Positions 5,618 to 40,175 of a DNA stretch of 64,000 nt are shown piece by piece (positions within the stretch are counted from its first letter, which is position 1; every line of letters starts with the position of its first letter). The notes beneath the pieces were generated by a model, which saw only the letters and a program-made list of their open reading frames with translations, made no database searches and was not told where the DNA came from. The stretch comes from Candidatus Thorarchaeota archaeon (GTDB lineage Archaea > Asgardarchaeota > Thorarchaeia > Thorarchaeales > Thorarchaeaceae). Location: positions 106 to 64,105 of the forward strand of contig SDNZ01000002.1 in the NCBI GenBank assembly GCA_004524565.1, written 5' to 3'. The position numbers and the translations under genes are program-made.

Positions 5618-5716
5618 CAAAATCACTACCAATAATGTACTGCATCACAATTCACCAATACCCTTTAACTTCTATGTCCTTTGACTTACGGAACATAAGG
5701 GAATTGTTTTAATCAA

Positions 5717-7442: not shown

Positions 7443-7445
7443 AGC

Positions 7446-11355: not shown

Positions 11356-11364
11356 GGTATAAAA

Positions 11365-14339: not shown

Positions 14340-15032
14340 ATGACTGTAGGTGAAGAAATCCGAACCTTTGTCAATGAGAAACATTTCCCGCAATGGGGAA
14401 TCATCGGATCAATCATTGGTCTTGTCTTTATTCTGGTTCCACAGCTGTTCTATACTGGCACCCTAGGTGAACCGTTCTCAATGTTCAATCATTATGTTTC
14501 AGAACTTGGAGAACTAGGGGTCTCAGAGTTTGCGATGATGTTTAACATTGGACTGATGCTTGCAGGTATATTCTTTATTCCCTTTATGTTCGGTCTTGGA
14601 TTATATCTTGAAAACATTCTTGGAAAGATAGCAGCTGTAATAGGTGCTTTTTCATCTCTCTCCATCTATCTAGTCGGAATATATCCCATGAACAATGCAA
14701 CGATGCACGGAATAACCGCTATCTCCTTCTTTCTTAGTGGGCTTGTTATGACAGTTCTCTGGGCTCTTGCAATTCTCATGCAAAGGAATGTAAAGATCCC
14801 CAAGATATTCTCATTGGGTGGTTTTATCAACACTGCAATATTCGCACTATTCCTCTATGGCCCTTGGGAGAGTCTCGGAGCAATACGACCAGTATTCTCC
14901 ATGCGTGTCACACTGGAATGGGCAATCTATTTTGCAATAGTCAGTTACATGTTCATTCTTGCACTTTATGTTTGGCGAATAGAAAAGAACGCAGAGAGTC
15001 TACAGGAATACTCTCAGTCATTCCAAGAATAA
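14340..15032 (+). CDS. Polytopic membrane protein (DUF998-like)
   Basis: Six or so hydrophobic segments, with MFNHYVSELGELG after TM1. The ORF track starts at 14307 (TTG). The ATG at 14340 has GGAGA about 9 nt upstream. The 3' end overlaps the convergent leuS by 15 nt. Confidence 0.6.
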   Translation: MTVGEEIRTFVNEKHFPQWGIIGSIIGLVFILVPQLFYTGTLGEPFSMFNHYVSELGELGVSEFAMMFNIGLMLAGIFFIPFMFGLGLYLENILGKIAAVIGAFSSLSIYLVGIYPMNNATMHGITAISFFLSGLVMTVLWALAILMQRNVKIPKIFSLGGFINTAIFALFLYGPWESLGAIRPVFSMRVTLEWAIYFAIVSYMFILALYVWRIEKNAESLQEYSQSFQE

Positions 15033-17921
15033 TGAAACGCGTCCTGGCAATGCAAAGCGTGCTTTGTTCTGTGGATCATATTTTGGTTCTTCAGAATTAT
15101 GAACAATGACCTCTAACTTGAACTCATTCCCGATGTGAGTACTGGCATCTTTCAGAGCTGCAATCTCCTCATTAGCAGTAGCTGAATTATCCCACAAACC
15201 ATTCTCCTTTGCAATTCTATCGACAATATTTTTGACTTCTTTTCCATGCTTCCTGAACTCTTCGTTTGACATCAGATGTTTCATGATTTCACCTACAACT
15301 GTAGGTAATTTGGCATCACGAATACTATTCATTGCTTCAAACATCCATTCAGGTGCAACATAGATGTGGACTTTCGAAGCTTTCTTCCCTTTCAGCAACT
15401 TCTTGATTTCTCTAATATCTCGAATCGTGGACTCTACTACCTCGTGAGCATTCTCGACATTCTTGTCGATTAATTTCTTGTCTGGTTTTGGCCATGCTGC
15501 TAATGAGACATAATCGTCATGTCCCATTTTTGCCCACAATTCTTCACAAATATGAGGAGTCATGGGTGCTGTTAATCGGATCCACTTATCACAAATGTAG
15601 GCCATAGTTCCTTCACGTTCTTCTTTTGGAATCCCCTCTCTATTCAGATAGTGATTGACAGCCCGTATCATTTCCGAAGAAACATGGATGGCGTATTCTC
15701 GCAATCTGAAATTATCCAGCATATCTGTACTATCTTGAATCAGAGAGTTGACACGTGATAGAATCCATTGTGTTGCCATGGTCGGTTTATCCTTCTTCGA
15801 ATATGCTTGAGGTGTTTTCTTTGCATATTTGGTTACAACTTGGATGAATTGACGCATTCTATTCCTCATGGATGGTACATCTTTCTCTCTCCAATCCATT
15901 AAGGTTCCAGGCTCCGCTGCTGATACTGTATAAATTCTAAACAGGTCCGCCCCATATTTTTCAGGAATCTCCACTAATGGAATGACATTACCCTTACTCT
16001 TGCTCATCTTCTTACCTTCCATATTCATGTGTTCGTTGAAACTGATGCATTGTAACCAGTACTTTTCAGGGAATATTGCCACATGGTGGAAGATTGCAAA
16101 GCTCAAGTGATTGGAAATATGCGAAGGCGCAGTATGTCGTTGATCATTTGGGTACCAATACATAAACTCGTTACGCATAGTTTTCAATAACTCAATGTCA
16201 ATCTCAGTTGATTTGCTGACATTAGCAGGAGTTTTCTTTCCTAAGAATATGTATTCGAAGAAATCGGACGTCAACTGCTTGGGCCTTAGCTTGTTCTTTG
16301 TTATATGATGTGCTATTGTATAGTATGCCATGTAAATCGTAGAATCTGATAAAGATTCGATGATCCAGTCTGGATCGAATGGTAATCTTGTACCAATACC
16401 TCTTCTGCGAGCACACGGTCTTTGGGCTAACCAGTCAAAAGTGGCTTCGAATAAATTCCGGAACATATCGGGAGTAATTTCCATATTCTCTAATGCTCTA
16501 CGTGCATCCTCTTTCCAACCTGGGCTTGTATAGTCTAAGAACCACTGTCCTGCAAAGACTCCTACTTGTACGTCCGTACCACATCTACAAACTACAGGTC
16601 GCTGATCGGGTTCATAGAAGACATCCACATGATTAACCGTTCCTAACCACGTCACAACGTCTTCCTTGACATCCTGTATAGACCGACCTGAAAATTGAGC
16701 ACAGTTCTCTTTCATGACACCATCATAGAACTCTGCCTTGTAGATCTCTTGGGTCGCATCTTCCAATTTCTCAACCTCAGCTTGTGACTTGATATCTCTC
16801 TTCTCCACGGCATCTTTTGCAGGGAACTCGCTGTACCCCTTCATATCAATCATACCAATGATTCCAATACTGCGAACATCCTCTGATGAGATTCCGTACT
16901 GCGCTAAGTTTGATGGGTCCTCCCACAGGTCTCTCAGTGCGATATAGTCAAAAGGTGCATGTCCAGGAACTGAATAAACTACACCTGTTGCATTCTTAGG
17001 GTCAACAAATTCAGCAGGTAGAATGGGTATCTCATGATTATCATGAATCGCTCTGAAGTATTTCCCAATGATTTTTGAGCCTTTGAAACTTTCAATAATT
17101 TCTACTTCTTTAGCTTGCAACTTTAACTTCTCTACTGCTGCTTGGGATACTATCCATTTCTCTCCATCAACCATTGCCCAGACATACTTTGCCTTAGGGT
17201 TGATCCACATGTTAGTGACACCAAAGATAGTTTCAGGCCTTAGGGTTGCTGCAACCAAGTATCCATCTTCAAAGGGCCACTTGATGGCTGTGAACTCCTT
17301 GATTTTTGCAGTTTCTCCTTTTAGTATATCATCCTCTCCTACAGGATTTCCACATTTAGGGCAATACAGCAATGGATAGTTACCCTGTTTGACATATCCC
17401 TTTTCCATGAATTTTTGATACTGCCATTCGATGAACTTGTTGTAGGTCTTATCACCTGTAGTAAATCCACGTCGCCAATCAATACTGTAGCCAAGAGCTG
17501 CGAAATCTTGTGAGATCACTTTCGCAAAGAATGATGCAGTTGTCATAGCATCCTTGAATTTTACCAGTTGTGCATCAACCTTCTCCTCAGTATCAAAGTA
17601 AAGGCGTAGGTCTCTTTTGTACATCTCAATTGCATCAGGGTCTCCTGCTAGGACTCGGTCCACCATGCCCTGTATTGGTGTGCCAGTCATATGCGATGCC
17701 ATTGGGAATAATACATTGAATCCTTGCATACGCTTGTAACGAGCAATCAGGTCACCAATTGTATAGGTTCTCCCGTGACCAATATGCAATGCACCATTTA
17801 CATACGGATATGGAACAGTCAAGAAGAACTTCTTACGCTTAGGATCTGGATCTGCCTCGAAGATTCTGTCCTTTGCCCAGCGTTTTTGCCATTTCTTCTC
17901 AATCTTTGCAAATTCACTCAT
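15018..17921 (-). CDS. leuS: Leucyl-tRNA synthetase (archaeal type)
   Basis: 967 aa. HIGH motif (LHIGHGRTYTIGD), KMSKS motif (GKKMSKSKGNV), and a class Ia editing-domain insertion. Confidence 0.95.
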   Translation of the reverse strand: MSEFAKIEKKWQKRWAKDRIFEADPDPKRKKFFLTVPYPYVNGALHIGHGRTYTIGDLIARYKRMQGFNVLFPMASHMTGTPIQGMVDRVLAGDPDAIEMYKRDLRLYFDTEEKVDAQLVKFKDAMTTASFFAKVISQDFAALGYSIDWRRGFTTGDKTYNKFIEWQYQKFMEKGYVKQGNYPLLYCPKCGNPVGEDDILKGETAKIKEFTAIKWPFEDGYLVAATLRPETIFGVTNMWINPKAKYVWAMVDGEKWIVSQAAVEKLKLQAKEVEIIESFKGSKIIGKYFRAIHDNHEIPILPAEFVDPKNATGVVYSVPGHAPFDYIALRDLWEDPSNLAQYGISSEDVRSIGIIGMIDMKGYSEFPAKDAVEKRDIKSQAEVEKLEDATQEIYKAEFYDGVMKENCAQFSGRSIQDVKEDVVTWLGTVNHVDVFYEPDQRPVVCRCGTDVQVGVFAGQWFLDYTSPGWKEDARRALENMEITPDMFRNLFEATFDWLAQRPCARRRGIGTRLPFDPDWIIESLSDSTIYMAYYTIAHHITKNKLRPKQLTSDFFEYIFLGKKTPANVSKSTEIDIELLKTMRNEFMYWYPNDQRHTAPSHISNHLSFAIFHHVAIFPEKYWLQCISFNEHMNMEGKKMSKSKGNVIPLVEIPEKYGADLFRIYTVSAAEPGTLMDWREKDVPSMRNRMRQFIQVVTKYAKKTPQAYSKKDKPTMATQWILSRVNSLIQDSTDMLDNFRLREYAIHVSSEMIRAVNHYLNREGIPKEEREGTMAYICDKWIRLTAPMTPHICEELWAKMGHDDYVSLAAWPKPDKKLIDKNVENAHEVVESTIRDIREIKKLLKGKKASKVHIYVAPEWMFEAMNSIRDAKLPTVVGEIMKHLMSNEEFRKHGKEVKNIVDRIAKENGLWDNSATANEEIAALKDASTHIGNEFKLEVIVHNSEEPKYDPQNKARFALPGRVSLFLE

Positions 17922-22178: not shown

Positions 22179-23123
22179 ATGGCAAGACCAGTACGTGCTT
22201 CAACAGGCAGTGGAAAGGGTTCAGCAATCTGTTCTGTTTGTGGCGGCAGTGATTTTTATCAAGATCACACTCGTGGTGAATCAATCTGCACTTCGTGTGG
22301 TTGCGTAATTAATGAACGAAATCTAGACACAGGTCCCGAGTGGCGAGCATTTACAGCAGAAGAACGCAACGCAAGAGCTCGAACCGGCTCTCCCATGACT
22401 TTAACCATGGCTGACAAGGGTCTTGCAACAACTATTGGCTGGAGCGATCGTGATGCTAATGGTCGCGCAATTGCTGCTTCTAGTCGTGCAGCCATTTACC
22501 GAATGAGGAAATGGCAAATCCGAACTTTGGTTCATAGCTCTCAACACAGGAATCTTAGCATTGCAATGAGTGAGATGGATAGATTGACCTCACAGCTTGG
22601 TATTCCCCATGAAACCAAAGAGACCGCAGCTCTGGTCTACAGGAAAGCACTCAACAGGCGTCTAGTTAGAGGAAGGAGCATTGAAGGAATGGTAGCAGCT
22701 ACTATCTATCTATCCTGCAGAATTCACAAGATTCCCAGGCAACTTGATGAGATTGTAACTGAAGCTCGAGTTAACAGAAAGGAACTTGGACAATGCGTCC
22801 GACTCATTCTGAGAAATGTCGACGTAAAGGTGCCAATCCCATCAGCAAACGACCTCATGCCTCGAATTTCAGCAGATCTAGGTCTCGATGGAAAGACTGT
22901 TCATACTGCAATGAGCATCATCAACGAAGCACGTGAGAAGGGAATTACTGCAGGTAAGGACCCAGGTGGTCTCGCAGCAGCCGCCCTCTATATTGCTGGT
23001 ATCATTGAAGATGACAGGCGAACTCAGAGAGAGATTGCTGAAGCATCCAATGTGACTGAGGTAACTGTTAGGAACCGATACAAGGACCTAGCAAATAGCC
23101 TGAAAATTACAATCAAACCATAG
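22179..23123 (+). CDS. tfb: Transcription initiation factor IIB (TFB), paralog 1
   Basis: 314 aa. N-terminal Zn ribbon CSVCGGSDF...CTSCG, B-reader/linker, and two cyclin repeats (VRGRSIEGMVAATIYLSCR; GKDPGGLAAAALYIAGI...RTQREIAEASNVTEVTVRNRYK). AGGTGA lies 9 nt upstream of the ATG. Confidence 0.95.
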   Translation: MARPVRASTGSGKGSAICSVCGGSDFYQDHTRGESICTSCGCVINERNLDTGPEWRAFTAEERNARARTGSPMTLTMADKGLATTIGWSDRDANGRAIAASSRAAIYRMRKWQIRTLVHSSQHRNLSIAMSEMDRLTSQLGIPHETKETAALVYRKALNRRLVRGRSIEGMVAATIYLSCRIHKIPRQLDEIVTEARVNRKELGQCVRLILRNVDVKVPIPSANDLMPRISADLGLDGKTVHTAMSIINEAREKGITAGKDPGGLAAAALYIAGIIEDDRRTQREIAEASNVTEVTVRNRYKDLANSLKITIKP

Positions 23124-23214: not shown

Positions 23215-23964
23215 ATGAATCAATTCATCCTTGCTCTCTGTGGTTTACCCGCATCTGGAAAATCTACATTAGCCAATGCAATCCAGAAAGCTCTGAACTA
23301 TGAAGTTGAGATTGTCAGGACTGATGAATGGCGAGATATTGAGTACTATACTGATTGGGTACCAGAAAAGGAAAAGCCCGTTCGACAAAAGGCCCTGTCA
23401 AGAGTTAGCGAGCTTGTTGAAGAAGGGAAGAGTGTAATCCACGATGATACAAATTATTACACAAGTATGCGACACGATCTGTTCAAGATAGCACTTGAGA
23501 AACAATGTGGATTTGCGATAGTTCATGTTGCAACACCAGTTACTGTTGCACTTCAATGGAATCGGGAACGAGAAAACTCCAGGGTTCCTGATAGTGTTAT
23601 ACAAGATATTTTCGAACGGTTCGATAATCCTGGACATAGTTATTTGTGGGATACGGAAGATCTTGAGGTCTCTCTGGAGATTCAGAATATTGATGATGTT
23701 CTCCCTGATATCGTTGAGATTCTCAAAGAGATTGAACCTGCAAAAAAGCCTAAACCAAGACTAGTGACAAGTACAGAATTTACTCGATTGGATACTGCAA
23801 CAAGATTGGTAGTTTCAGAATTTCTACAAGAATATCCCGAATTCCGAGGAAACCGAGAAGTCTCAATCATACGTCGAAGTTTCTTACGGAAAGCTAGTGA
23901 ACGGAAAATACAACTTAAAGCTGTTCATAAACTCCTTTGGAGTGAACTGTCACGTTTACTGTGA
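23215..23964 (+). CDS. pstK: O-phosphoseryl-tRNA(Sec) kinase (PSTK)
   Basis: 249 aa. P-loop LCGLPASGKST, then DDTNYYTSMRHDL and FERFDNPGHSYLWD. From memory, these parallel the Methanocaldococcus PSTK motifs (DDTNYYNSMRRDL, FDEPGKKYKWD). The stop codon abuts the tRNA-Sec gene. Confidence 0.88.
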   Translation: MNQFILALCGLPASGKSTLANAIQKALNYEVEIVRTDEWRDIEYYTDWVPEKEKPVRQKALSRVSELVEEGKSVIHDDTNYYTSMRHDLFKIALEKQCGFAIVHVATPVTVALQWNRERENSRVPDSVIQDIFERFDNPGHSYLWDTEDLEVSLEIQNIDDVLPDIVEILKEIEPAKKPKPRLVTSTEFTRLDTATRLVVSEFLQEYPEFRGNREVSIIRRSFLRKASERKIQLKAVHKLLWSELSRLL

Positions 23965-24055
23965 TGGCGGCCTCCTAAGAGAATCGAACTCTCAACGCTT
24001 GCACGTTCACGGGTTTGAAGCCCGCGGAACCAGACCACCGGTCCTGTAGAAGGCC
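23965..24055 (-). tRNA. tRNA-Sec (anticodon UCA), archaeal/eukaryotic 9/4 fold, genomically encoded CCA
   Basis: Minus-strand sequence GGCCTTCTA-CA-GGACCGG-TGGT-CTGGTTC-CGCGGG-CTTCAAA-CCCGTG-AACGT-GCAA-GCGTT-G-AGAG-TTCGATT-CTCT-TAGGAGGCC-G-CCA. It has a 9-bp acceptor stem, a 7-bp D-stem with a 4-nt loop, a 6-bp anticodon stem, a loop with U33-UCA-A37, a long variable arm with a GCAA loop, and a 4-bp T-stem with a TTCGATT loop. Folded by hand. Confidence 0.9.
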
Positions 24056-24079
24056 ATTACTGAACATGTAGATGCAGAG

Positions 24080-24090
24080 CTTACTAAAAT
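24080..24090 (-). promoter_or_regulatory. Possible TATA-like element for tRNA-Sec
   Basis: The minus strand reads ATTTTAGTAAG about 25-35 nt upstream of the tRNA 5' end. The tRNA could alternatively be processed from the selB-spcS transcript. Confidence 0.25.
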
Positions 24091-24744
24091 CTAGAGGTAG
24101 CGGCCTATGACTGCATGCGTTCCCTTTTTCCACTCTATACTCTTTTTGGCTAATTCAGCAGCGATGTTTCCTGGTAGTGGTTGTTCACGAGGTAACGATT
24201 CAATATTTGATAACCAACCAGAAGTTGTAAGAGCTATTGTGTTAACACCTTCATCCCCCTCGGTTGCTTTGATTATCATCTCTCGCCCATGAGCAACTTG
24301 GTAGTACACTTCACTCAGTGGTGCTTTCTTCAAAATTTTATGGACAACCATATCCCAACATGTCTTTGCTACCAACGCCCTTCTAAGCTTGGATCTATCT
24401 TCCTCAGGAAGTGCTTCTAATTTACTAATGGATTCCTCTAGGTTTTCCATAATACCATCCAAGTAAACTTTGAGCGCAACCTCATCCTTACCCTGTGCGT
24501 GGAGTTCGACTGATGCTTCTTCCTCATTGACTTTAACCGATGCAAATGCCTTCTCGCCGGCAATTTGAAGAGAGAATTTCGCATCACCTTGAAAGCTTGT
24601 ACTCTCCGCTTCGCTGTACTGATCAAGAAGTACATTCGGCTTAGAAGCAATAGCATACCAAGCTACTCTGAAGACTGCAGCAGAATCCTCTGAGGCATAC
24701 TTTTGAATTTGAGAAATCTCAACCATATCGTCGTCTGCTTCCAC
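24091..24744 (-). CDS. Uncharacterised 217-aa protein embedded in the selenocysteine operon
   Basis: Starts 30 nt downstream of the spcS stop on the same strand and ends 35 nt before tRNA-Sec. Acidic N-terminus. No motif recognised, and no L7Ae-like or nucleotide-binding signature is visible. Confidence 0.6.
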   Translation of the reverse strand: MEADDDMVEISQIQKYASEDSAAVFRVAWYAIASKPNVLLDQYSEAESTSFQGDAKFSLQIAGEKAFASVKVNEEEASVELHAQGKDEVALKVYLDGIMENLEESISKLEALPEEDRSKLRRALVAKTCWDMVVHKILKKAPLSEVYYQVAHGREMIIKATEGDEGVNTIALTTSGWLSNIESLPREQPLPGNIAAELAKKSIEWKKGTHAVIGRYL

Positions 24745-24774
24745 GTGTCAGGCCCTCCCTCAAGGACAATATCA

Positions 24775-26094
24775 TTATCTACTAGCCTCCTTATAGAGTT
24801 TAGCCGTAGCTGTTTCAATGTCTTCTTTTCGTGCTCCAATAGCTGCATTCATCACGATATAGCTGTGAGGATAGTTTTCTGTTGATGATCCATAGTCCCC
24901 TTTCTTTACTGCTCTTGGTCCAGTCACTCGAGCATTATAGAGCCTTGCCCCTATTTCTTCTACATCCAAGCCATCCATAGTGATAGCAAATGCCACAGGA
25001 TTCCTTACTTCTAACAATCGTTGCCCAAGTTTTTCAGCAATAATCAGAAGACTTTCTTGTAACTGTGCTAGATTCTCCAATTGTTGTTTCTGAAGCTCTT
25101 TGTATCTCTCATAACCTATTGAAAGAAGAGCGGCAAGAGTTTGAATAACGGGAGCTGCGCTAGCACGTCCCGCATAGGTGTCTGAGACCCATGCGATTAA
25201 CTCTGATTTTGGAGAAACTACGATTGAACCTCCAACAGGAGTCAGGAAATTTTTGTCACTACTCTGTATGACTGCGTCAACTCTTCCAGCATCAATTGCT
25301 GACCGAATTTGCATCATGATCTCTTGAGATTGAACTCCATATGCATTGTTGATTATCAATGGAACATCATACTCTGAACAGAGACGAGCTATACTTTTTA
25401 CGGGGTCGGACTCTCGCGGTGGAAAGAATGTGGTTGTAGCGAGAACTGCACACGCTTCTGTATTGCTGATGCTCTTCTCAAATTCTCCAAGATTAACACG
25501 AACTGCATCACCTTCAATGACCGTGGGGATTTGCACTTCATCTAATCCTGCTAGAGCTATGCCTCGCTTGGGTGAGGTGTGATCTATTCTCGGATAGAGT
25601 ACCTTCTTTATGCCCACTTCTCTTCTGAGGGCACTCAATACCAATGCAATACTCATTCCTGTGGATACTGGTGTAACTATGCCTGCTTTCGTATTACTTA
25701 GTCCCAATTTTCTAATTGCATCTAGGGCTGTGTTATTTGCTACTTGTTGCATCAATGACGCACCAGCAGCCTTTGGTTGCGGAGCTGAAAGCTGACCACT
25801 TCTACCAATTCCATGGTTGAAATCAGCAGCTAAACTTGCTACATATGGGGATGCAACTCGTGCTTCACGTTCTCCCACTCTTGCGGCTTCTGGATCTTTG
25901 TCAGTATCCATCGACGAAAGAATCTGAACCATTAGTTCAAGTTGAGAATCTGTTAAACCTCTGTCTGGAAAGATTCGTCTATTTAGGACATCGCGAACTG
26001 GAGCGAGTAATGAGTCTATTGTTGTTCGACCTCTACGAGCCATACTTTCTGGAATCGTCTTGTCTAGAATCCTATCAATTTCATCATGGTCCAA
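24775..26094 (-). CDS. spcS: O-phosphoseryl-tRNA(Sec) selenium transferase (SepSecS)
   Basis: 439 aa. Motifs GEREARVASP...FNHGIGRSGQLSAPQPKAAGAS and the PLP-lysine region VIQSSDKNFLTPVGGSIV. Confidence 0.9.
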   Translation of the reverse strand: MDHDEIDRILDKTIPESMARRGRTTIDSLLAPVRDVLNRRIFPDRGLTDSQLELMVQILSSMDTDKDPEAARVGEREARVASPYVASLAADFNHGIGRSGQLSAPQPKAAGASLMQQVANNTALDAIRKLGLSNTKAGIVTPVSTGMSIALVLSALRREVGIKKVLYPRIDHTSPKRGIALAGLDEVQIPTVIEGDAVRVNLGEFEKSISNTEACAVLATTTFFPPRESDPVKSIARLCSEYDVPLIINNAYGVQSQEIMMQIRSAIDAGRVDAVIQSSDKNFLTPVGGSIVVSPKSELIAWVSDTYAGRASAAPVIQTLAALLSIGYERYKELQKQQLENLAQLQESLLIIAEKLGQRLLEVRNPVAFAITMDGLDVEEIGARLYNARVTGPRAVKKGDYGSSTENYPHSYIVMNAAIGARKEDIETATAKLYKEASR

Positions 26095-27478
26095 ATCTAT
26101 ATTCCTCCTCTACAAGACGTTCATACTGTATGATTTCATCCTGCATAACATCTTTGTCAAACTCTATCGAAACAACACCCCTTGTACCGAATGGTGCCCT
26201 AATAATCCCGACTGCACCACCTGCTGCAGTGACATGCAATCCAACAATGGATTCTGCGACGCTCTTTGCAGAAGCTAATCCTTCCACAAGTACGTCCGCA
26301 TCCCGTATTCTCTGAACCTTACCCTTTCGAATCTTCCTCTTGTTCAGGATGACTTTTCCTAAGATTTCGGAGACACTTCCAGAACCAATGATTCTCATTT
26401 CACTTGGTGATAGGTCCGTACGAATAAGTAACACTCTAGCACCCTCGTCTACAGCGATTGGTCGCTGGAATAGCAGAACCGCATCAAACGCTCCTGCCTT
26501 AAAATCATCAAGGACTACTCGAACTCCATTACGTACCTCGAACGGGATGACCTGTGCTGTTACCATTGGCATACCTATTGCAGCACTGATGACCATCCTC
26601 TGAGTGATTCTTCCCTGATAGAGTATATTGGTTTGTGCATGTACAACCATTGCATCAGCAATCGGAATTGATTTTGGTGACGCAATGTAGTCACCTCGTG
26701 TGATTTGTGTATGATCTATTTCTGGTACGTTTATTCCTACACGGTCTCCTGCAGATGCTTCTAATCGATTTGTGCTGAATGTTTGAATTGACCGAACTTT
26801 ACTAGTCAATCCAGAGGGAGAACATTCCACAACATCATTTACTGATAGATGACCACGAAGAATAGTACCTGTAACGACAGTGCCATGTCCTTTCACTGAA
26901 AACGCATGATCTATTGGCATCAACACAGGGCCTTCAACTATTCTTGTTCTAGGAACAATCACATTGAGAATCGCGCTGCGTAAATCATCGATGCCTTCTC
27001 CCTTTTGAGCTGAAACTGTAACATATTCTACTCTTTCGAATCCTGCATCTCTTACTATCTTCTTCATCATACCTTTTACTTCTGCTAACCGCTTATCTTT
27101 GACCAAGTCACTTTTTGTAATCGCGATTACAACAGAGTTGATGTCCAAAGAACGTAAGACAACAAGATGCTCTCCCGTCTGGATTTTTGGACCTTCGTCT
27201 GCAGCAACAGTGAGAATTGCACCATCAATGATGTTTGCACCAGCAACAACACTTCTGATGAGGTCTGCATGTCCTGGTGCATCCACGAGTGTTACAAGAT
27301 ACTTTTCAAGAACGAACATTGTAAAACCAAGGTCTATTGTGATTCCGCGTTCTTGGGCTTGTGGATGTTTATCTAATCCTGCTGTAGAAACTTGTTCACT
27401 AATAGCACGAGCTAATGCTGTCTTTCCATGGTCTATATGACCCATTAGACCAATGTGTACAGGCACTAATTTATCCAT
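26084..27478 (-). CDS. selB: Selenocysteine-specific elongation factor (archaeal SelB / EFSec-like)
   Basis: 464 aa. GTPase motifs GLMGHIDHGKTAL, DAPGH, TKSD and SAQKG, followed by beta-barrel domains and a C-terminal extension. The 3' end overlaps the spcS start by 11 nt. Confidence 0.85.
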   Translation of the reverse strand: MDKLVPVHIGLMGHIDHGKTALARAISEQVSTAGLDKHPQAQERGITIDLGFTMFVLEKYLVTLVDAPGHADLIRSVVAGANIIDGAILTVAADEGPKIQTGEHLVVLRSLDINSVVIAITKSDLVKDKRLAEVKGMMKKIVRDAGFERVEYVTVSAQKGEGIDDLRSAILNVIVPRTRIVEGPVLMPIDHAFSVKGHGTVVTGTILRGHLSVNDVVECSPSGLTSKVRSIQTFSTNRLEASAGDRVGINVPEIDHTQITRGDYIASPKSIPIADAMVVHAQTNILYQGRITQRMVISAAIGMPMVTAQVIPFEVRNGVRVVLDDFKAGAFDAVLLFQRPIAVDEGARVLLIRTDLSPSEMRIIGSGSVSEILGKVILNKRKIRKGKVQRIRDADVLVEGLASAKSVAESIVGLHVTAAGGAVGIIRAPFGTRGVVSIEFDKDVMQDEIIQYERLVEEEYRFGP

Positions 27479-27569
27479 ATTCTTTCCACATCTTCAGTGG
27501 CGGAATCAGACATAAAACCTTCCTCGGAACGTAGAGGAGTTTATTGGGACGATTGCCTGACAATAAATC

Positions 27570-27980
27570 ATGGTATCTAGATCTCTTGAGAAGATGATGC
27601 TCATTGCAGTAGGTCTCTCAACTGCAGTAATTATTGGAGTTCCTGTCTTACTTTATGCAATTGATACTATGTCGTATTCTACTCATCTTCAGAGTGCTCA
27701 GGTAGCAGCTGAAGATATCTTCACTGCGACTGAACGACTTGATACAGGGGAGGTTGAAAATCTCACCATTCGAGTTCACATACCAACAGGTATGTCGATG
27801 ATTGCTGATGTATCTACGTTAACAATATCAGTACTAATCAATGGTCAAACCACGAGTTGGTCTGATTCATACACTCACCAGATTGTGATCAATCCTCCAA
27901 CCGAAGCTGGTAATTATGATATAGAATTTACAATGGTTTCGAATGTAATTCATATCACATATACATTCATCTCATTCTAA
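27570..27980 (+). CDS. Hypothetical N-terminally membrane-anchored protein
   Basis: 136 aa. One N-terminal hydrophobic helix (MMLIAVGLSTAVIIGVPVLLYAI), then a beta-rich segment. It does not show a convincing class III (pilin) cleavage motif. Confidence 0.45.
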   Translation: MVSRSLEKMMLIAVGLSTAVIIGVPVLLYAIDTMSYSTHLQSAQVAAEDIFTATERLDTGEVENLTIRVHIPTGMSMIADVSTLTISVLINGQTTSWSDSYTHQIVINPPTEAGNYDIEFTMVSNVIHITYTFISF

Positions 27981-28070: not shown

Positions 28071-29144
28071 GTGAGGAATAAGCTCATGACTGAAGACGCC
28101 GAAAGGCTAGACGACATTGGTGAGGAAGAAGAAATTTCTGAGCCAGAGATAGAGATTGAAGAACCTGTCAAGAAGAAAGAAATGAAAGAAGCGAAAGAAA
28201 AGAAACCCAGAACAAATCCTCTTGGTATCCTTTTCAATCTTAGAATGCTTCGAAGATTTATTCAGATAGGATTCTTCATTGCCATCAATGCGTACATCTT
28301 TGTAGCATGGTTTCATATGCCTAACGTTACTGGATTCTTTCTTTCTTTTCGGAATATTATACCCTCGATCCCTATACTATCTCCACTTGAGGCACCATTT
28401 GCAGTGATTGCTGGTTCATTTGACACAATTCAACAGACATTCACTACAGGTCTATTCCCGTTCTTCACATTAGGTGCGATGATTATTATTCTCATCTTCG
28501 TTGGTCGCGCTCCTTGCGGTTGGATTTGCCCACTGGGCACCATCCAAGACTTTGTTACTCTACCCAAGAGAAACAAGATTCGTCCAGCTCCCAATACTGA
28601 AAGTGAACTCAGAAAGGTCAAAATATACATCTTCGTTATTGTCACCGGTCTAGCGGTTTGGTTGGGATTTGCACGAGCTACAGGAACTGGAGGACCACTT
28701 GAAGCCGCACTTGGTGCATTTGCAAATGATGCATTTGCTCCATTGAATCCTGCTAATATCTTGTTTAATATTATACCAAATTTGAATTGGCCCGAGGGTA
28801 TCAGTACACTATGGTATGTCTATTCATGGGGTTTTGCATGGCTCCAAATTGCTTTCGTTTCCATTATCTTCATTGTTTCCTTCTGGGTACCAAGGTGGTT
28901 CTGTAGATGGCTTTGTCCTGCAGGATGGCTCTATAGTATCTTTTCAAGAGAAGCATTGATTGGTATCGGAAGAAACCCTGCACGATGTACTCCTGATACG
29001 TGTAATGTCTGTGAAGTGGTCTGTCCAATGAATATCAGAATCAGGAAGTTTCCATATCAGCATATGCACAGTCCTGATTGTATAATGTGTCTGGAATGTA
29101 AAAGTCACTGCCCAAATAATGCCATAGTAATACGATTCTCATAG
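28071..29144 (+). CDS. NapH/MauN/NosR-type membrane polyferredoxin
   Basis: 357 aa. CGWICPLGT and CRWLCPAGW (CxxCP motifs at TM ends) plus C-terminal CNVCEVVCP and CIMCLECKSHCP. Acidic/Lys-rich N-terminal tail. GTG start at 28071 or ATG at 28086. Confidence 0.75.
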   Translation: MRNKLMTEDAERLDDIGEEEEISEPEIEIEEPVKKKEMKEAKEKKPRTNPLGILFNLRMLRRFIQIGFFIAINAYIFVAWFHMPNVTGFFLSFRNIIPSIPILSPLEAPFAVIAGSFDTIQQTFTTGLFPFFTLGAMIIILIFVGRAPCGWICPLGTIQDFVTLPKRNKIRPAPNTESELRKVKIYIFVIVTGLAVWLGFARATGTGGPLEAALGAFANDAFAPLNPANILFNIIPNLNWPEGISTLWYVYSWGFAWLQIAFVSIIFIVSFWVPRWFCRWLCPAGWLYSIFSREALIGIGRNPARCTPDTCNVCEVVCPMNIRIRKFPYQHMHSPDCIMCLECKSHCPNNAIVIRFS

Positions 29145-29513
29145 GCTGATAGAATCAGTTTTTTTGAGGACCTTATTAAATTCATCATTTAGTTTGGAAA
29201 AGATTTCAACAAGGCGGAGTCCTTCTTCAGTGACTCGTGCACCACCTCCCCCAACTGTACCCCCCTTGTAGGTTTCTACAAGACGCACTCCTAGTTTCTT
29301 TTCTATCTTCTTAATGACTCCCCATGCATAACGATATGACATTCCCAGTATCTGTGCCCCTTTGGTAATTGTTCCTTGTTCATGAACTGCTTTCAAAATT
29401 GCACATGCACCTGGGCCAAAAATATACTCTCCATTTCTTTCGAACCATAGTTTATAATTGGATTTCAAGTCCTGGGTTTTGCCATCCTTTTCTGACAATT
29501 GGACACTCTCCAA
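29139..29513 (-). CDS. ModE-N-terminal-like winged-helix regulator (molybdate/tungstate-regulator-type HTH)
   Basis: 124 aa. GACAILKAVHEQGTITKGAQILGMSYRYAWGVIKKIEKKLGVRLVETYKGGTVGGGGARVTEEG matches the ModE/LysR-type HTH layout. There is no Mop domain. Confidence 0.7.
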   Translation of the reverse strand: MESVQLSEKDGKTQDLKSNYKLWFERNGEYIFGPGACAILKAVHEQGTITKGAQILGMSYRYAWGVIKKIEKKLGVRLVETYKGGTVGGGGARVTEEGLRLVEIFSKLNDEFNKVLKKTDSISL

Positions 29514-29552: not shown

Positions 29553-29810
29553 CTAGTGCCCCCACCGAAGTCTTTCACCTTTTGTGTCTTTCTTGAAGGC
29601 TTTCTTTACAATCTTCCAGTGATCCGCACACAGGTAGGTCTTCCTATCCCGAGCATCCTTTACTTTGAGACCCGAGGAAGTAACACTTGGCATGATTCTC
29701 ACTGTGGCAAAAGATCTCTTCGATGATTTTCTGCACCCCAAAATACTGCATTCTTTCGTAGACGTAGACGACACTTGTGACACTTCGAATGTGTATCTGT
29801 GCTTAGCCAT
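29553..29810 (-). CDS. Small basic protein with a C2CH zinc-finger-like spacing
   Basis: 85 aa. C22-x4-C27 ... C71-x2-H74 (CSILGC ... LCADHW). Lys/Arg-rich. Confidence 0.45.
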   Translation of the reverse strand: MAKHRYTFEVSQVSSTSTKECSILGCRKSSKRSFATVRIMPSVTSSGLKVKDARDRKTYLCADHWKIVKKAFKKDTKGERLRWGH

Positions 29811-29831
29811 TATAATGTTAGCGCCTACGGT

Positions 29832-30824
29832 CTAATCATGACCTGTACGAGGTGTAAGGACCGCACCTTTAGTGAAATCAAACATAATCCTCTTCTCTCC
29901 ACCCATTGAGAGTTTTACTACACGTGTATCATCTACACTTCCAATTCTGCATGCTGACAAATCATGTTCCTCTGCAATCTGTTTCAGTTTTAGAAAATTT
30001 TCCTCTCTAGTTGCAACTAAGAATCCAAGAGAGATATACATGCGAAGCCAATCTTCCAGTTTAATTTGTTGAGGTCTCGCTCTATCAATCATATCCAGGT
30101 CGATAGTACCACCTTTTCCAGAATACTCCAGCATCATTGCTGCAGTACCAGCAATACCTGCAACTGACACATCTTTTGATGCAGTAACAAGATTTCCCTC
30201 AGCAATATCGTTCATCACCGAAAGGCGTTTCACAACATTTTCTGAGGGTCTATCTGTTACTGAATCCCATCCCAGCTGATAATGTTCTCCTCTCTGACCA
30301 GTTCGATCAAACAGTACAACAAGAATATTGTCATCTTCTGCACCCCCTGCAGTAAGGATACAGCTTTTTTGAACTGTGCCTGTAGCAGATCCTACAACAT
30401 AAGTGGATGTTGAGTTTGGATTAGTATGCCCTCTAACTATGGGTATCTTGAAGGTATGCGAACCTCGGATCAGACCATCCAACATAGCCTCACCAATCTC
30501 CGGGTTTGAATAGGATAATGCTACAGCAAATGAAGTTGGCGTTCCACCTGCCGCATAGATATCCATGATATTTGCTAGTACTGCATTGAATCCAGCGGCA
30601 CTAGGATGTTGCAAGCATAAATCTTCAACAATTGCATCGGTAGTGAGAAGAACTAACTCGTCAGAGTCGGTCCCTATAGCAGCTGAATCTTCTCCGAGAC
30701 TGTGGGGTGTATCTCCCCTAAATGAACTCATTCGAAGCTTGTCTATAATTGATGGTAGAACGAATTTACGAGATATGCCATCAAAGCTGACCAGCATTTC
30801 AAGAATATCGTCAAGGCGAGTCAA
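29832..30824 (-). CDS. AIR-synthase-related protein (PurM/ThiL/SelD/HypE superfamily), specificity unknown
   Basis: 330 aa. SLGEDSAAIG...LLTTDAIVED...GFNAVLANIMDIYAAGGTP ... IPIVRGHTNP ... KDVSVAGIAGTAAMMLEYS is the superfamily layout. TTG start with GGTGA 5 nt upstream. It lacks the SelD N-terminal G-(C/U)-x-x-K loop. Confidence 0.75.
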   Translation of the reverse strand: MTRLDDILEMLVSFDGISRKFVLPSIIDKLRMSSFRGDTPHSLGEDSAAIGTDSDELVLLTTDAIVEDLCLQHPSAAGFNAVLANIMDIYAAGGTPTSFAVALSYSNPEIGEAMLDGLIRGSHTFKIPIVRGHTNPNSTSTYVVGSATGTVQKSCILTAGGAEDDNILVVLFDRTGQRGEHYQLGWDSVTDRPSENVVKRLSVMNDIAEGNLVTASKDVSVAGIAGTAAMMLEYSGKGGTIDLDMIDRARPQQIKLEDWLRMYISLGFLVATREENFLKLKQIAEEHDLSACRIGSVDDTRVVKLSMGGEKRIMFDFTKGAVLTPRTGHD

Positions 30825-37035: not shown

Positions 37036-38601
37036 GTGGATTACTTGCATGCGAAGTATTACTCTCTCTTCTTGTTAGTTATTCTTGCTAGTCCTCTATG
37101 TTTTGCTTTTACACCAAGTACTGGTATCCCGATGCCAATACAACATTCATCAGCAGCAATCGCAGACACAACATCCTTCGTAAGAGGACCAACAGTAAAT
37201 CTAGTTACAAATGAATCCGCATTGATTTTCTGGCGAACTGAGGGCGTGACTAATGCAACGGTCTGGTATGGTTTGAACACCTCAGTAATCGAGTCTGTTG
37301 TGAACACGACTCTCGATACAGACCACAGAATTCAACTAACGGGATTAGAGATTGATTCCAAATACTTCTACAAAGTGTCTTCAAATAATACGGAAAGTGC
37401 TCTCTATCATTTCCGAACGGCACCTCCTGATGGTGAAGAATTCAAAATGATTGTTATTGGTGACAATCGACCGGCATCAATTAGTTACATTCAACCTGAT
37501 GAATTCAAGCAACTAGCTCAGATGATTATTGATGAGGCGCCTCATATAGTAATAATGTCTGGAGATTATGTCCTTGATGTCAGCGCAGATGATTCGTATA
37601 ATCTCGCAGGCTGGGCAGCTTTCACAAACATAAGTGACTCAATAGGACATTATGCTCCAATCTATGGCGCTCTTGGAAATCACGACACTGGAGCAAAGAC
37701 TGGTACATTAAGGTTACAATACTACTTTGATGCTTTCGAACACTATAATGAACCATCTACATATTTTTCATTCGACTATGCCGGCACTCATTTTGCAATA
37801 ATAGACACCGAGATACAACACTATGAAGGAAGGATTACCGGTGATCAATACACATGGCTCGTAAATGATTTAGAATCCAGTGATTGCTCGATTAAATATG
37901 TCGTCGGACATCGCCCGATGTATCCACTAAGTCATATCGGGGATTCGATTGATAGTAATCCTACGGAACGTGCAAGGCTTCAGCAGCTCTTTGAAGATCA
38001 GAATGTGACAGCATACATCTGTGGTCACGATCATCTTTTCGACAGACTCACAGTTAATGGACTAGTACATCTAATATCTGGTGGAGGTGGGGCACCACCC
38101 TACGATACTTTCTGGGGCGATGCATATTACCACTACATGCGAATCAATTCTAGTTATAGTCACGTAAACATGTCTACAATCAAACTGAACGGTGAAATAG
38201 GTTATAATTACCAATTGCCATATTTGGGCCCCCTTGAAATTGCAATTCGAGTTCTTGGGAATGGAAGCACAGCACAAACTGGGACACTACCTGAAATTTA
38301 CTTCAGTGAAGAACCAAGCCAAATATACTATTCATGGGATTTAGGAGTGAATCAAACAGAACTGACCGGACTTCCTAACATCAATGGACAGCATAGTCTT
38401 GATGTGTATGCATTAGATTCCGATGATGTCTGGACCCATGAGCGTTTTGTTTTGACAACTGTAGGTGCAACACCGACCACTACAGCTCCGCCACCTTTAG
38501 TACTCGATCCGCTCTTGATAGGAGGAATTGCAGTTGCAGGAATTGTAGTAGTTGTGGTCGTCATCGTCTTCCGACGCCGTCAGGTTCCATTATCTGGTTG
38601 A
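37036..38601 (+). CDS. Secreted/anchored calcineurin-like metallophosphoesterase (purple-acid-phosphatase-like)
   Basis: 521 aa. N-terminal signal-like helix, FN3-like PAP N-domain (VWYG...YFYKV), motifs GDNR, GDYV, GNHD, GHRP, GHDH. Thr/Pro linker plus a C-terminal TM and RRRQ anchor. Confidence 0.85.
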   Translation: MDYLHAKYYSLFLLVILASPLCFAFTPSTGIPMPIQHSSAAIADTTSFVRGPTVNLVTNESALIFWRTEGVTNATVWYGLNTSVIESVVNTTLDTDHRIQLTGLEIDSKYFYKVSSNNTESALYHFRTAPPDGEEFKMIVIGDNRPASISYIQPDEFKQLAQMIIDEAPHIVIMSGDYVLDVSADDSYNLAGWAAFTNISDSIGHYAPIYGALGNHDTGAKTGTLRLQYYFDAFEHYNEPSTYFSFDYAGTHFAIIDTEIQHYEGRITGDQYTWLVNDLESSDCSIKYVVGHRPMYPLSHIGDSIDSNPTERARLQQLFEDQNVTAYICGHDHLFDRLTVNGLVHLISGGGGAPPYDTFWGDAYYHYMRINSSYSHVNMSTIKLNGEIGYNYQLPYLGPLEIAIRVLGNGSTAQTGTLPEIYFSEEPSQIYYSWDLGVNQTELTGLPNINGQHSLDVYALDSDDVWTHERFVLTTVGATPTTTAPPPLVLDPLLIGGIAVAGIVVVVVVIVFRRRQVPLSG

Positions 38602-40175
38602 ACAACTTCACCTGCAACTAGTCCACTACTAAGAACCTTTGAAACACGAACATCAAGTAGGGTTCCTGGAGAGTAACCTCCAGGGACAGTCATCAATGGT
38701 CCCTCCTCTAGCGGATTTACCATTGTGTATCCATGGCGGACCCAAGACGGTTCAGCTGCTATTCCTCGCAATATCTTTCCAAGGTAGTTATCCTTCTTCT
38801 CTCGATTGATTTTATCTGCTTCTTGTCTGAGTAGTAATCCAAGCTCATCTTTTGTGGACGATTCTGGATACTTCTCGAAGGCTGAACCTGGTAAGGGACG
38901 AAAACCGTACAGGATTATTCTCTCCGCACCTGCCTTGCTGACTTCTCTCATTACCTCTATTGACTCAGTAATGGTTTCTTCATCTTCTCCTGGTAATCCG
39001 TAGATGAAGTAAACAAAAGGATTCATTCCGTACTTTGTTGCTATGCGTACTGCAGAGATAACATCACCTGGAGAACCGCACTTTCCAATATCTCGCAAGT
39101 GTTTTTCCGAACCAGTCTCAAGTCCGATATTGGGAGAACTCGACATCATAGAATCAACTAGTGTCTTTGCTACATCTTCAGTAAACAAACATGCCTTCAT
39201 GTTCTCAATTGCAATATGGGCGGTCTTATTGGTAACCTGTGGTAGTGCGTTCAATCTCTCCAATAGGTCTCTAATTGCATTCAGATTAGCCGGAGGATAG
39301 CATGGATCTGTTAGTGGTTCATTTCCTCGCATGAAGTCTAGAAATCCTGGAGACTCGAGTACAATCCGATGAACTCCCAAGTCGAGTAATTCACGAACTT
39401 CTTCAACAATGACTTCCGTTGTGCGACTACGAGGCGGACCCCACGTTCCTGGCACACTACAAAATCCGCATCCTGGCGGTATATCTTCTGGACAATTCAT
39501 TCTTGCTGCAGGATCATCCGCATCACAATTACCACAATCAGAGCATTGCCGCCCATCCTCAAGTCGAAGGTTAGTTCTTCTGAAGTTGGAGCAGCCACGA
39601 GTCACCTCGACGTACACTTTGCTTGCTTGATACGCTCTGTAATCAATAATCCTGGTTGTTGATGGTCTGTAATCATCAGAGAGCGCTTTGGAAGGAATAA
39701 AGTCTCTCGGTTTTGTTGTTACAATCTTTCCGCCTGCAGGATAGGCAACTCCTCTTACTTCGGATAACTCTACATATTTGTCAAGGAATCCCTTTGTTAC
39801 TAATTCTTCAAGAGTAGCTTCTCCTTCTCCTATCACAATAACATCGGGATTCAACTCTATCAGAGATAACGGATCTGCAGAAATTGGGCCACCGATGAGG
39901 AGTCTTCCATGGGTACGCGAACCGTACCATAATTTAACGAATTTAGTGACTGCAGGAAGGTCCATGGTCATTGCACTAATTGCGGCATGGTCAAACTTTC
40001 GGAGGATTGCCCGTTTTTCAAGAATCTCTTCCACTCTATGGATCTGACAAGGGATATCGTTATTTTCAAGCACTCCCGCCACTGCTCTCGGTCCACATCC
40101 TATCGAATCTCGTGAACTCCGACGCTGACCTGTCCCTGCACTGAGGGCATCCACAATAAGCACTCTATTTGTCAT
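38580..40175 (-). CDS. Radical SAM protein with a B12-binding-like N-terminal domain and a TRAM-like C-terminus
   Basis: 531 aa. EVTRGCSNF ... CSDCGNC ... PPGCGFCSV Cys cluster region, TIM-barrel-like middle, and a C-terminal PGTLLDVRVSKVLSSGLVAGEVV. Confidence 0.75.
   Translation of the reverse strand: MTNRVLIVDALSAGTGQRRSSRDSIGCGPRAVAGVLENNDIPCQIHRVEEILEKRAILRKFDHAAISAMTMDLPAVTKFVKLWYGSRTHGRLLIGGPISADPLSLIELNPDVIVIGEGEATLEELVTKGFLDKYVELSEVRGVAYPAGGKIVTTKPRDFIPSKALSDDYRPSTTRIIDYRAYQASKVYVEVTRGCSNFRRTNLRLEDGRQCSDCGNCDADDPAARMNCPEDIPPGCGFCSVPGTWGPPRSRTTEVIVEEVRELLDLGVHRIVLESPGFLDFMRGNEPLTDPCYPPANLNAIRDLLERLNALPQVTNKTAHIAIENMKACLFTEDVAKTLVDSMMSSSPNIGLETGSEKHLRDIGKCGSPGDVISAVRIATKYGMNPFVYFIYGLPGEDEETITESIEVMREVSKAGAERIILYGFRPLPGSAFEKYPESSTKDELGLLLRQEADKINREKKDNYLGKILRGIAAEPSWVRHGYTMVNPLEEGPLMTVPGGYSPGTLLDVRVSKVLSSGLVAGEVVQPDNGT

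Follow-up and report, generated by a model that had tools for sequence, protein, structure and literature searches.

What does a cluster of selenocysteine (Sec) genes in a Thorarchaeota genome amount to, and what is the small protein encoded in its midst doing there? We addressed this question in a 64,000-nucleotide (nt) stretch of DNA from a Candidatus Thorarchaeota archaeon (contig SDNZ01000002.1 of assembly GCA_004524565.1), hereafter called the window, in which genes for tRNA-Sec and the enzymes PSTK, SepSecS and EFSec lie together with a gene for a 217-amino-acid protein, Sel_Asgard. We conclude that this is very probably a native, functional locus for Sec biosynthesis and decoding in Thorarchaeota, of the archaeal/eukaryal PSTK-SepSecS type, and that Sel_Asgard is most likely an accessory whose role is probably not confined to Sec. 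The whole locus packs a near-complete pathway into 4.3 kb and consists of the following features:

26084-27478, minus strand: EFSec/archaeal SelB, 464 amino acids; first gene of the apparent operon
24775-26094, minus strand: SepSecS (SpcS), O-phosphoseryl-tRNA(Sec) selenium transferase, 439 amino acids
24091-24744, minus strand: Sel_Asgard (orf217), Asgard-restricted, 217 amino acids; NCBIfam NF045535
24056-24090, minus strand: spacer between Sel_Asgard and tRNA-Sec, 35 nt, with an A/T-rich box
23965-24055, minus strand: tRNA-Sec, anticodon UCA, 91 nt; called by ARAGORN and Rfam RF01852
23215-23964, plus strand: PSTK, O-phosphoseryl-tRNA(Sec) kinase, 249 amino acids; convergent with the four minus-strand genes
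27479-27569, no strand assigned: divergent intergenic region between EFSec and its neighbour orf136, 91 nt; putative shared promoter region

An earlier reading of the same DNA from its letters alone (the original prediction) had named SelB, SepSecS, tRNA(Sec) and PSTK. Its coordinates, strands, gaps and overlap for the four minus-strand genes and PSTK proved exact when compared with the open reading frame (ORF) table, the ARAGORN output and the raw sequence, and its gene identities stand, with Sec-specific models and solved structures giving the best matches throughout. The tRNA, for which it had proposed a test against Sec covariance models, was called tRNA-SeC by ARAGORN and matched RF01852 over the full model (1-91) at 59.2 bits, against a gathering score of 47 (E 1.8e-9). 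Its stems measure 9 bp (acceptor), 4 bp (T), 7 bp with a 4-nt loop (D), 6 bp (anticodon) and 5 bp (variable arm), with a G discriminator and an encoded CCA, which is the 9/4 archaeal/eukaryal form. Across 38 distinct tRNA-Sec homologues, 99.3% of the cells of the cloverleaf are paired, and in 16 of its 31 pairs both bases vary. The ninth acceptor pair (9-79) is among those that covary (AU in 32 homologues, GC in 3, CG in 2 and GU in 1), and none of 500 shuffles reached the observed pairing and covariation values.

The assignments of SepSecS and EFSec are similarly specific. SepSecS scored 470 bits on TIGR03531 (cutoff 225) and 396 bits on the Pfam SepSecS family (PF05889, 1.9e-118); among PDB sequences it matched 2Z67 at 5e-111 and human SepSecS at 5e-77, with SepCysS at merely 1e-4, and it carries the pyridoxal phosphate (PLP)-lysine motif SSDKNF at residues 278-283. 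EFSec scored 276.7 bits on TIGR00475 (selB, cutoff 242) versus 165 bits on the EF-Tu model (cutoff 452), and the EF-Tu, EF1A and aIF2-gamma models all fell far under their cutoffs. Its Pfam domains are GTP_EFTU, D2, aSelB_III (1.7e-9) and eEFSec_4th (3.1e-7), the last two being the Sec-specific domains III and IV (PF21440 and PF21131). It matched Methanococcus maripaludis SelB (4AC9) at 6e-91 over residues 7-449, compared with about 1e-40 for EF-Tu, and retains the GTPase motifs GHIDHGKT (G1), DAPGH (G3) and TKSD (G4). All four protein genes are under purifying selection when compared with close relatives, with ratios of non-synonymous to synonymous substitution rates (dN/dS) of 0.03-0.18, including 0.07-0.09 for SepSecS and 0.12-0.18 for EFSec.

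PSTK requires more care. Its best NCBIfam match is TIGR03574 (selen_PSTK, 2.5e-42, model positions 1-233 of 249), with a score of 145 bits that lies under the trusted cutoff of 290.5 bits, and its Pfam match is to KTI12 (1.9e-35), a family that includes a non-Sec paralogue. Both observations would suit a locus of non-Sec paralogues (aIF2-gamma or EF1A, another PLP enzyme and KTI12) sitting beside an unusual suppressor tRNA. However, the only PDB matches of PSTK are to M. jannaschii PSTK (3ADB/3A4L, 1.4e-23), and the protein has a Walker A motif, GLPASGKS, at residue 10 and an RxxxR motif, RENSR, at residue 119. For all three proteins the Sec-specific models and solved structures were best by wide margins, and the hidden Markov model (HMM) check for paralogy that the original prediction had called for found none that scored better as a paralogue. 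The tRNA passes the Sec covariance model with its 9/4 architecture, and related genomes have lost the four genes jointly: PSTK is gone along with EFSec, SepSecS and tRNA-Sec in loci L009, L011, L012, L061 and L063 (described below). The paralogue explanation is thus effectively refuted, and all three enzymes and the tRNA belong to Sec-specific families.

The genes are tightly packed. EFSec and SepSecS overlap by 11 nt (TTGGACCATGA), with the SepSecS start lying inside the EFSec end, and SepSecS is separated from Sel_Asgard by a gap of 30 nt. SepSecS begins with a TTG codon that has a Shine-Dalgarno-like box, GAGGAGG, 9 nt upstream, and Sel_Asgard begins with GTG, preceded by GAGGGAGGG, so that both starts have GAGG-rich boxes in front of them; homologues share the start positions of both genes. 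The overlap, the short gap and these strong boxes resembling ribosome-binding sites make it most likely that EFSec, SepSecS and Sel_Asgard share one transcript and are coupled in translation. The transcription units themselves are predicted from sequence features. The region at 27479-27569 is a putative shared promoter region for the divergent genes, and the 35-nt spacer probably contains a separate promoter for tRNA-Sec: an A/T-rich box (ATTTTAGTAAG), located some 23-33 nt ahead of the 5' end of the tRNA, looks like a TATA/B recognition element (BRE)-type archaeal promoter. Equivalent spacers in other loci (L013-L031) measure 28-99 nt, and many contain a conserved AAGCTTAAGT box about 22-33 nt from the tRNA. 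PSTK would be transcribed convergently; its stop codon ends at 23964, abutting the encoded CCA of tRNA-Sec.

To what extent is this arrangement shared? The order EFSec-SepSecS-Sel_Asgard-tRNA-Sec, with PSTK converging on it, was complete in 44 related loci and partial in 18 more, and, of 73 informative loci, SepSecS preceded Sel_Asgard in 62 and was absent there in 11 (these counts include duplicates, some loci being the same contig from two collections). Such recurrence places the arrangement far beyond chance. Across Thorarchaeota genome and metagenome loci the recurring block reads AIRS-like, orf85, ModE-like, NapH-like (minus), orf136 (minus), EFSec, SepSecS, orf217, tRNA-Sec, PSTK (minus) and TFIIB (minus), and the EFSec-SepSecS-Sel_Asgard trio was also found in Jordarchaeia (Sel_Asgard 23% identical) and in a further divergent lineage. 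The host is an Asgard archaeon, as had been guessed from neighbouring genes: the 217-amino-acid protein is 100% identical to EU528_00785 from a Candidatus Thorarchaeota metagenome-assembled genome, and a Roadblock/LC7 gene lies at 42839-43234.

The presence of nearly the whole pathway in 4.3 kb could also be taken as the mark of a horizontally acquired mobile island. We disfavour this explanation and regard it as highly improbable. GC content at the locus (0.42-0.44) lies within the flat range over the window (0.40-0.46), and synteny with the neighbourhood extends to about 70 related loci, across Thorarchaeota and partly in other Asgard classes; together, base composition and synteny indicate a native core locus rather than a mobile island. 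The flanks are core genes, with TFIIB at 22179-23123 and LeuRS at 15018-17921, a tRNA-intron endonuclease and a PhoU-like gene at 32.7-33.9 kb, SUI1 and Roadblock/LC7 at 40-43 kb and a ribosomal-protein operon at 52-62 kb. We saw no integrase, no repeat and no further tRNA marking a boundary of the cluster.

Some related loci depart from the common order in other ways. In a Thorarchaeota-like metagenomic locus (L075, 1337-1540), SepSecS, Sel_Asgard and tRNA-Sec are kept, TFIIB lies 70 nt past the tRNA and PSTK, missing from its usual place, is relocated or lost. In Jordarchaeia and a related divergent lineage (L033, 1689-3871; L039, 3799-4881), one or two paralogous proteins of 350-360 amino acids are encoded immediately before EFSec or in the interval from PSTK to EFSec. 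For the two paralogues in L033 the only matches were weak ones to nucleotidyltransferases (NTP_transf_2), and no Pfam match was recorded for the L039 protein.

If the locus is native, does the organism use Sec? In the published survey (PMC11227280, ISME J 2024), the Sec trait is assigned on at least three machinery genes, tRNA-Sec among them, plus at least one selenoprotein gene. Four machinery genes are present here (tRNA-Sec, PSTK, SepSecS and EFSec). The original prediction had seen no canonical SelD and no TGA-interrupted ORF in the window, and our searches agree: tblastn with Sec-containing Thorarchaeia and Sifarchaeia SelD proteins (from the PMC11227280 supplement) gave no match in the 64 kb, and a search of all six frames for pairs of ORFs linked by a single in-frame TGA yielded no convincing selenoprotein gene. 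Since the window holds no selenoprotein gene, Sec insertion sequence (SECIS) element or SelD, Sec use by the organism cannot be demonstrated from the window.

The TGA scan did return three plausible pairs, which proved to be separate genes: an amidohydrolase and a ferredoxin; an FlpD-Fer4 protein and a ferredoxin; and a B12/radical-SAM gene with an unannotatable 75-amino-acid tail. These fall among ordinary metabolic genes, with an amidohydrolase, a ferredoxin and an aldehyde:ferredoxin oxidoreductase in a row at 6024-9799 (plus strand) and a B12-binding radical-SAM enzyme at 38580-40175 (minus strand). At 10297-11856 (plus strand) an FlpD/FrhD-family protein is fused to a 4Fe-4S domain, and a ferredoxin gene follows 9 nt on in the same frame. 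The FlpD/MvhD(FrhD) homologue itself (10297-11355, plus strand) has Cys at each of the two sites where Asgard FrhD selenoproteins have Sec, and is therefore a Cys form.

Three points weigh against the reading of a functional Sec locus: the PSTK score under its trusted cutoff, the lack of a selenoprotein gene, SECIS element or SelD in the window, and the retention of Sel_Asgard under purifying selection where the neighbouring Sec genes have been deleted or pseudogenized, which argues against a strictly Sec role for that protein. The second of these, together with the Cys form of FrhD/FlpD, would fit a decaying or silent remnant in an organism that no longer uses Sec, as is the case for about one fifth of Thorarchaeia. 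Loss of Sec genes is indeed recurrent in the clade and is in progress in a close relative, L049. There (5582-6000; Sel_Asgard 79% identical to that of the window), EFSec and SepSecS are destroyed: the EFSec start is joined to a piece from inside EFSec and to the tail of SepSecS. tRNA-Sec and PSTK remain undamaged, which indicates that the loss is under way. The locus in the window bears no such marks: all four ORFs are full length with catalytic motifs intact, the tRNA scores 59.2 bits versus 46.0 for the decayed L009 copy, and EFSec, SepSecS and PSTK have dN/dS values of 0.07-0.18. We therefore consider a remnant very unlikely.

On the reading of a functional locus, the reaction sequence in this organism can be proposed by analogy with characterized systems. 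tRNA-Sec would be charged with serine by a SerRS encoded elsewhere; PSTK, judging from its family and motifs, would phosphorylate Ser-tRNA(Sec) to Sep-tRNA(Sec); and SepSecS would turn Sep-tRNA(Sec) into Sec-tRNA(Sec) with selenophosphate from SelD. SelD, itself a selenoprotein in Thorarchaeia, and the selenoprotein genes would be encoded outside the window. EFSec would then bring Sec-tRNA(Sec) to UGA codons of selenoprotein mRNAs carrying eukaryote-like SECIS elements. The function of Sel_Asgard would overlap with this system and not be limited to it; of all steps in the scheme, the part given to this protein is the weakest.

What, then, is Sel_Asgard? The protein scored 229.9 bits (cutoff 132) on NF045535, an NCBIfam equivalog named "Sel_Asgard, putative selenocysteine system protein". 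It had no Pfam match at E <= 0.01, and a profile search of PDB sequences gave nothing significant (best E 0.22). An exhaustive HMMER search of 1.84 billion representatives recovered 17 clusters at 50% identity. At 90% identity the family numbers about 300 clusters, nearly all of them labelled Thorarchaeota. The divergent members come from Jordarchaeia/Freyarchaeota (23% identity) and three lineages without a class label (for divergent lineages, the cluster members of neighbouring genes bear no finer name than "Promethearchaeota"), and none of the 1.84 billion representatives was a homologue outside Asgard-labelled or unlabelled metagenomic contigs. A second profile search returned the same close Thorarchaeota relatives and nothing else.

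The AlphaFold2 model of Sel_Asgard is confident (pLDDT 92.4, pTM 0.88) and comprises two domains: residues 8-85 form an N-terminal beta-alpha-beta4 domain, and residues 88-214 form a C-terminal bundle of five helices. The residues F25, D131, R154, E155, I158, W205, K206 and I213 are invariant, and most of them lie in the C-terminal domain. Foldseek searches of the PDB with the full model and with the C-terminal domain gave no match at E<1e-3. Candidate folds for the N-terminal half (DcrB, RnlA, the PGM C-domain and AlkA) reached template-modelling (TM) scores of at most 0.42. The C-terminal domain came closest to the four-helix bundle at the C terminus of Vps28 (TM 0.69-0.74 on the target, E 0.046), with generic four-helix bundles next; we built on none of these. 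A 268-amino-acid protein on a 1.1-kb ENA contig (P0122) has an unrelated N-terminal extension of about 140 residues fused to the C-terminal helical domain of Sel_Asgard alone, which hints that this domain can work as a separate module, the contig being too short to judge.

The Sel_Asgard of the window has an isoelectric point (pI) of 4.9 and a net charge of -11, and most members have a pI of about 4.9-5.4 and charges of -6 to -11. The family alignment contains no conserved cysteine, and no catalytic motif was seen. Neither the PDB profile search nor the fold searches revealed any likeness to SBP2/L7Ae or RRM proteins. Sel_Asgard thus resembles neither an enzyme nor a selenium carrier nor a typical RNA-binding protein. 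Because it is acidic, lacks a conserved Cys or catalytic motif and is modelled as an alpha/beta domain joined to a helical bundle, a non-enzymatic, protein-binding accessory or adaptor appears the most likely role.

A constraint on this role comes from loci that have lost their Sec genes. In 11 loci SepSecS and EFSec are missing beside Sel_Asgard, with deletion scars or pseudogenes visible; we call these Sec-minus, a status judged at the Sel_Asgard locus rather than over whole assemblies. In L009 (7487-9194), EFSec is reduced to codons 1-122, broken by frameshifts into three pieces and joined to the final 28 SepSecS codons; 12 PSTK codons are left, and tRNA-Sec is down to 46.0 bits with mispairs in three stems. 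L011 and L012 (about 7836-8737) share a deletion scar in which the SepSecS 3' tail is left and tRNA-Sec and PSTK are wholly gone, and in L061 and L063 (around 5700-6750) all four Sec genes are missing at the locus. In a neighbour-joining tree, four Sec-minus Thorarchaeota groups (L009; L011 and L012; L061 and L063; L049) are each nested among Sec-plus sisters, indicating at least four independent losses; such recurrence fits the 77% Sec-use figure for Thorarchaeia in PMC11227280. A deep lineage (L035-L038 and L083), with LeuRS 52% identical to that of the window, has orf133 (minus), Sel_Asgard and TFIIB and no Sec gene at the locus.

In every Sec-minus case Sel_Asgard is intact, with a ribosome-binding site and the former EFSec promoter region upstream: GGTTTTATG and the rest of the EFSec/orf136 intergenic region are kept in front of Sel_Asgard where EFSec and SepSecS have been deleted. 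Sec-minus pairs gave dN/dS values for Sel_Asgard of 0.096 (L011/L012), 0.089 (L061/L063) and 0.068 (L035/L083, dS 1.76), indistinguishable from the 0.03-0.13 of Sec-plus pairs. Its retention under purifying selection after local Sec loss suggests that the role of Sel_Asgard is probably not confined to Sec decoding. Sec-minus Thorarchaeota copies still score above the NF045535 cutoff of 132 bits (222 bits for L012, 8001-8651; 212 bits for L009, 8001-8645), and automatic annotation would therefore label them selenocysteine system proteins despite the local loss of Sec genes. One assembly with a Sec-unlinked Sel_Asgard copy, GCA_016840135, is absent from the selenoprotein files of the PMC11227280 supplement, from which such assemblies are not classifiable.

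These data bear directly on the proposal that Sel_Asgard is a dedicated trans-acting Sec factor and a true fifth component of the machinery, acting either as an SBP2-like bridge from eukaryotic-type SECIS (eSECIS)-like elements or the ribosome to EFSec, or as a scaffold handing tRNA-Sec from SepSecS to EFSec. In Thorarchaeota, in Jordarchaeia and in two more divergent lineages, the gene comes immediately after SepSecS and is read from the same strand; the family is tiny, with its 17 clusters at 50% identity found on Asgard or unlabelled metagenomic contigs only; and NCBI curators named it accordingly. No SBP2 has been found in Asgard archaea (PMC11227280, PMC4989117), and the authors of PMC11227280 suggest that unknown genes may fill its role. 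Yet at least four independent Thorarchaeota lineages and one deep lineage that lack adjacent EFSec and SepSecS, and usually tRNA-Sec and PSTK as well, keep an intact Sel_Asgard at dN/dS 0.07-0.10. The acidity of the protein (pI about 5) is atypical for a direct RNA binder, and its fold is neither L7Ae-like nor RRM-like. Moreover, no taxon-labelled match came from Lokiarchaeia, the largest group of Sec users, although this is absence of evidence only. The dedicated SBP2-like role is weakened by these observations, and we regard it as plausible but on balance doubtful.

Is anything else at the locus kept together with Sel_Asgard when the Sec genes go? Two further features in the window stand out:

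27570-27980, plus strand: orf136, small protein with an N-terminal hydrophobic helix; divergent from EFSec
29553-30824, minus strand: AIR-synthase-like (AIRS-like) gene and orf85 as a pair (AIRS-like 29832-30824; orf85 29553-29810)

The first, orf136, occurs in essentially all Thorarchaeota loci, Sec-minus ones included, and had no Pfam or NCBIfam match. A homologue (24% identity, E 2e-6) stands divergently beside Sel_Asgard in the Sec-less L035 lineage (7481-7882, minus strand), which belongs to a different Asgard class. This protein is a conserved partner of the locus, independent of Sec. NapH-like and ModE-like genes are kept throughout Thorarchaeota in the stretch that separates the Sec operon from the AIRS-like gene; in the window (28071-29513) the NapH/MauN-like membrane polyferredoxin (Fer4_5) convergently overlaps a fragment of a ModE-type helix-turn-helix regulator.

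The AIRS-like ORF has AIRS_N and AIRS_C domains. Its best NCBIfam match is to methanogenesis marker 2 (224 bits, cutoff 365), and it also resembles the sll0787 family, which scores better than selD. We rejected it as a cryptic SelD: it scored 36.9 bits on TIGR00476 selD (cutoff 125), Thorarchaeia SelD(U) queries miss it and its N-terminus is without the Cys/Sec-x-x-Lys loop. The partner, orf85, encodes a small basic protein with a C-x4-C...C-x2-H pattern. This pair lies about 2-3 kb beyond EFSec in Thorarchaeota, where it is kept in Sec-minus loci too, and directly downstream of EFSec-SepSecS-Sel_Asgard in Jordarchaeia (L085, 7187-8470), with the two proteins at 29% identity (E 6e-46) and 33% identity (E 2e-13). 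The pair is also present at L084 (about 7089-8467), and in another lineage Sel_Asgard is convergent with orf85 and a NapH-like gene. Whether the AIRS-like/orf85 pair belongs to the Sec system is uncertain.

One could imagine Sel_Asgard as an Asgard-specific trans-acting Sec adaptor of undescribed fold, which would couple SepSecS or EFSec to the ribosome or to eukaryote-like SECIS elements as a stand-in for SBP2 and would have a second, Sec-independent function in addition. We consider this combined scenario unlikely and put it forward as speculation. Were it true, the second function would explain the survival of Sel_Asgard after Sec loss and might be shared with orf136 and the AIRS-like/orf85 pair.

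How does the locus compare with other Sec systems? The enzymes of Methanococcales and Methanopyrus are orthologous to those of the window, supplying its best PDB matches (4AC9, 2Z67 and 3ADB/3A4L), and their tRNA-Sec likewise has the 9/4 form and a long D stem; the HMMER search returned no Sel_Asgard homologue labelled as one of these archaea. In Methanococcales the Sec genes are scattered instead of lying in a cluster, and the SECIS elements are archaeal rather than eukaryote-like. Eukaryotic machinery (eEFSec, SepSecS, PSTK, SBP2 and SECp43) follows the same PSTK/SepSecS route, and human eEFSec and SepSecS are clear homologues of the proteins in the window: human eEFSec matched EFSec at 4e-53, human SepSecS matched as noted above, and the C-terminal domain of the window EFSec matches eEFSec_4th. 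Eukaryotic SBP2 has no reported Asgard counterpart, and Sel_Asgard does not resemble it. Bacterial selC and selA-selB loci also cluster the Sec tRNA with an elongation factor and a Sec synthase. Bacterial SelA acts directly on Ser-tRNA(Sec) without a PSTK step, and bacterial SelB has a SECIS-binding winged-helix extension; bacterial SelB structures matched the window EFSec at 2.3e-42 (5LZB) and 1.2e-39 (4ZU9) versus 6e-91 for archaeal SelB.

The closest counterpart is the Asgard Sec-encoding system itself (Mariotti et al. 2016, PMC4989117; PMC11227280), with the same tRNA-Sec, PSTK, SepSecS, EFSec, extra protein family and host group, and with SelD encoded elsewhere; the locus in the window shows no difference from it. 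The original prediction had restricted the PSTK/SepSecS route among archaea to Methanococcales, Methanopyrus and Lokiarchaeota-type genomes, a range that is out of date. A survey of more than 400 Asgard genomes found Sec use in 85.9% of Lokiarchaeia/Helarchaeales, 77.4% of Thorarchaeia and 57.1% of Sifarchaeia/Borrarchaeales, with SelD being a selenoprotein in more than 90% of Asgard Sec users, and cites earlier Sec reports for Thorarchaeia and Jordarchaeia (PMC11227280). Nor is the one-locus arrangement the novelty it had been taken for. The Discussion of PMC11227280 describes an Asgard-only hypothetical protein often found near secS, efSec and pstk, and the extra ORF already has a family model in NF045535. 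The arrangement was thus already known and the window is one instance of the Asgard Sec locus. Beyond PMC11227280, we found no mention of the Sel_Asgard protein in the papers searched. What is new here is that purifying selection has kept Sel_Asgard even where the Sec genes beside it were lost, as happened repeatedly, and that it has a confident two-domain model without a significant PDB neighbour.

The Asgard Sec system sits between archaeal and eukaryotic UGA recoding, and the window adds no new kind of system to it. Two additional leads, orf136 and the AIRS-like/orf85 pair, emerge from the conserved neighbourhood; their link to selenium is unproven. No candidate for an Asgard-specific Sec factor other than Sel_Asgard has been published, and the curated NCBI model is already spreading the name "selenocysteine system protein" through annotation. 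The retention of Sel_Asgard after loss of the adjacent Sec genes cautions against that annotation, suggesting that the name may overstate the role of the gene, and narrows the hypotheses on what this protein does in Asgard archaea.

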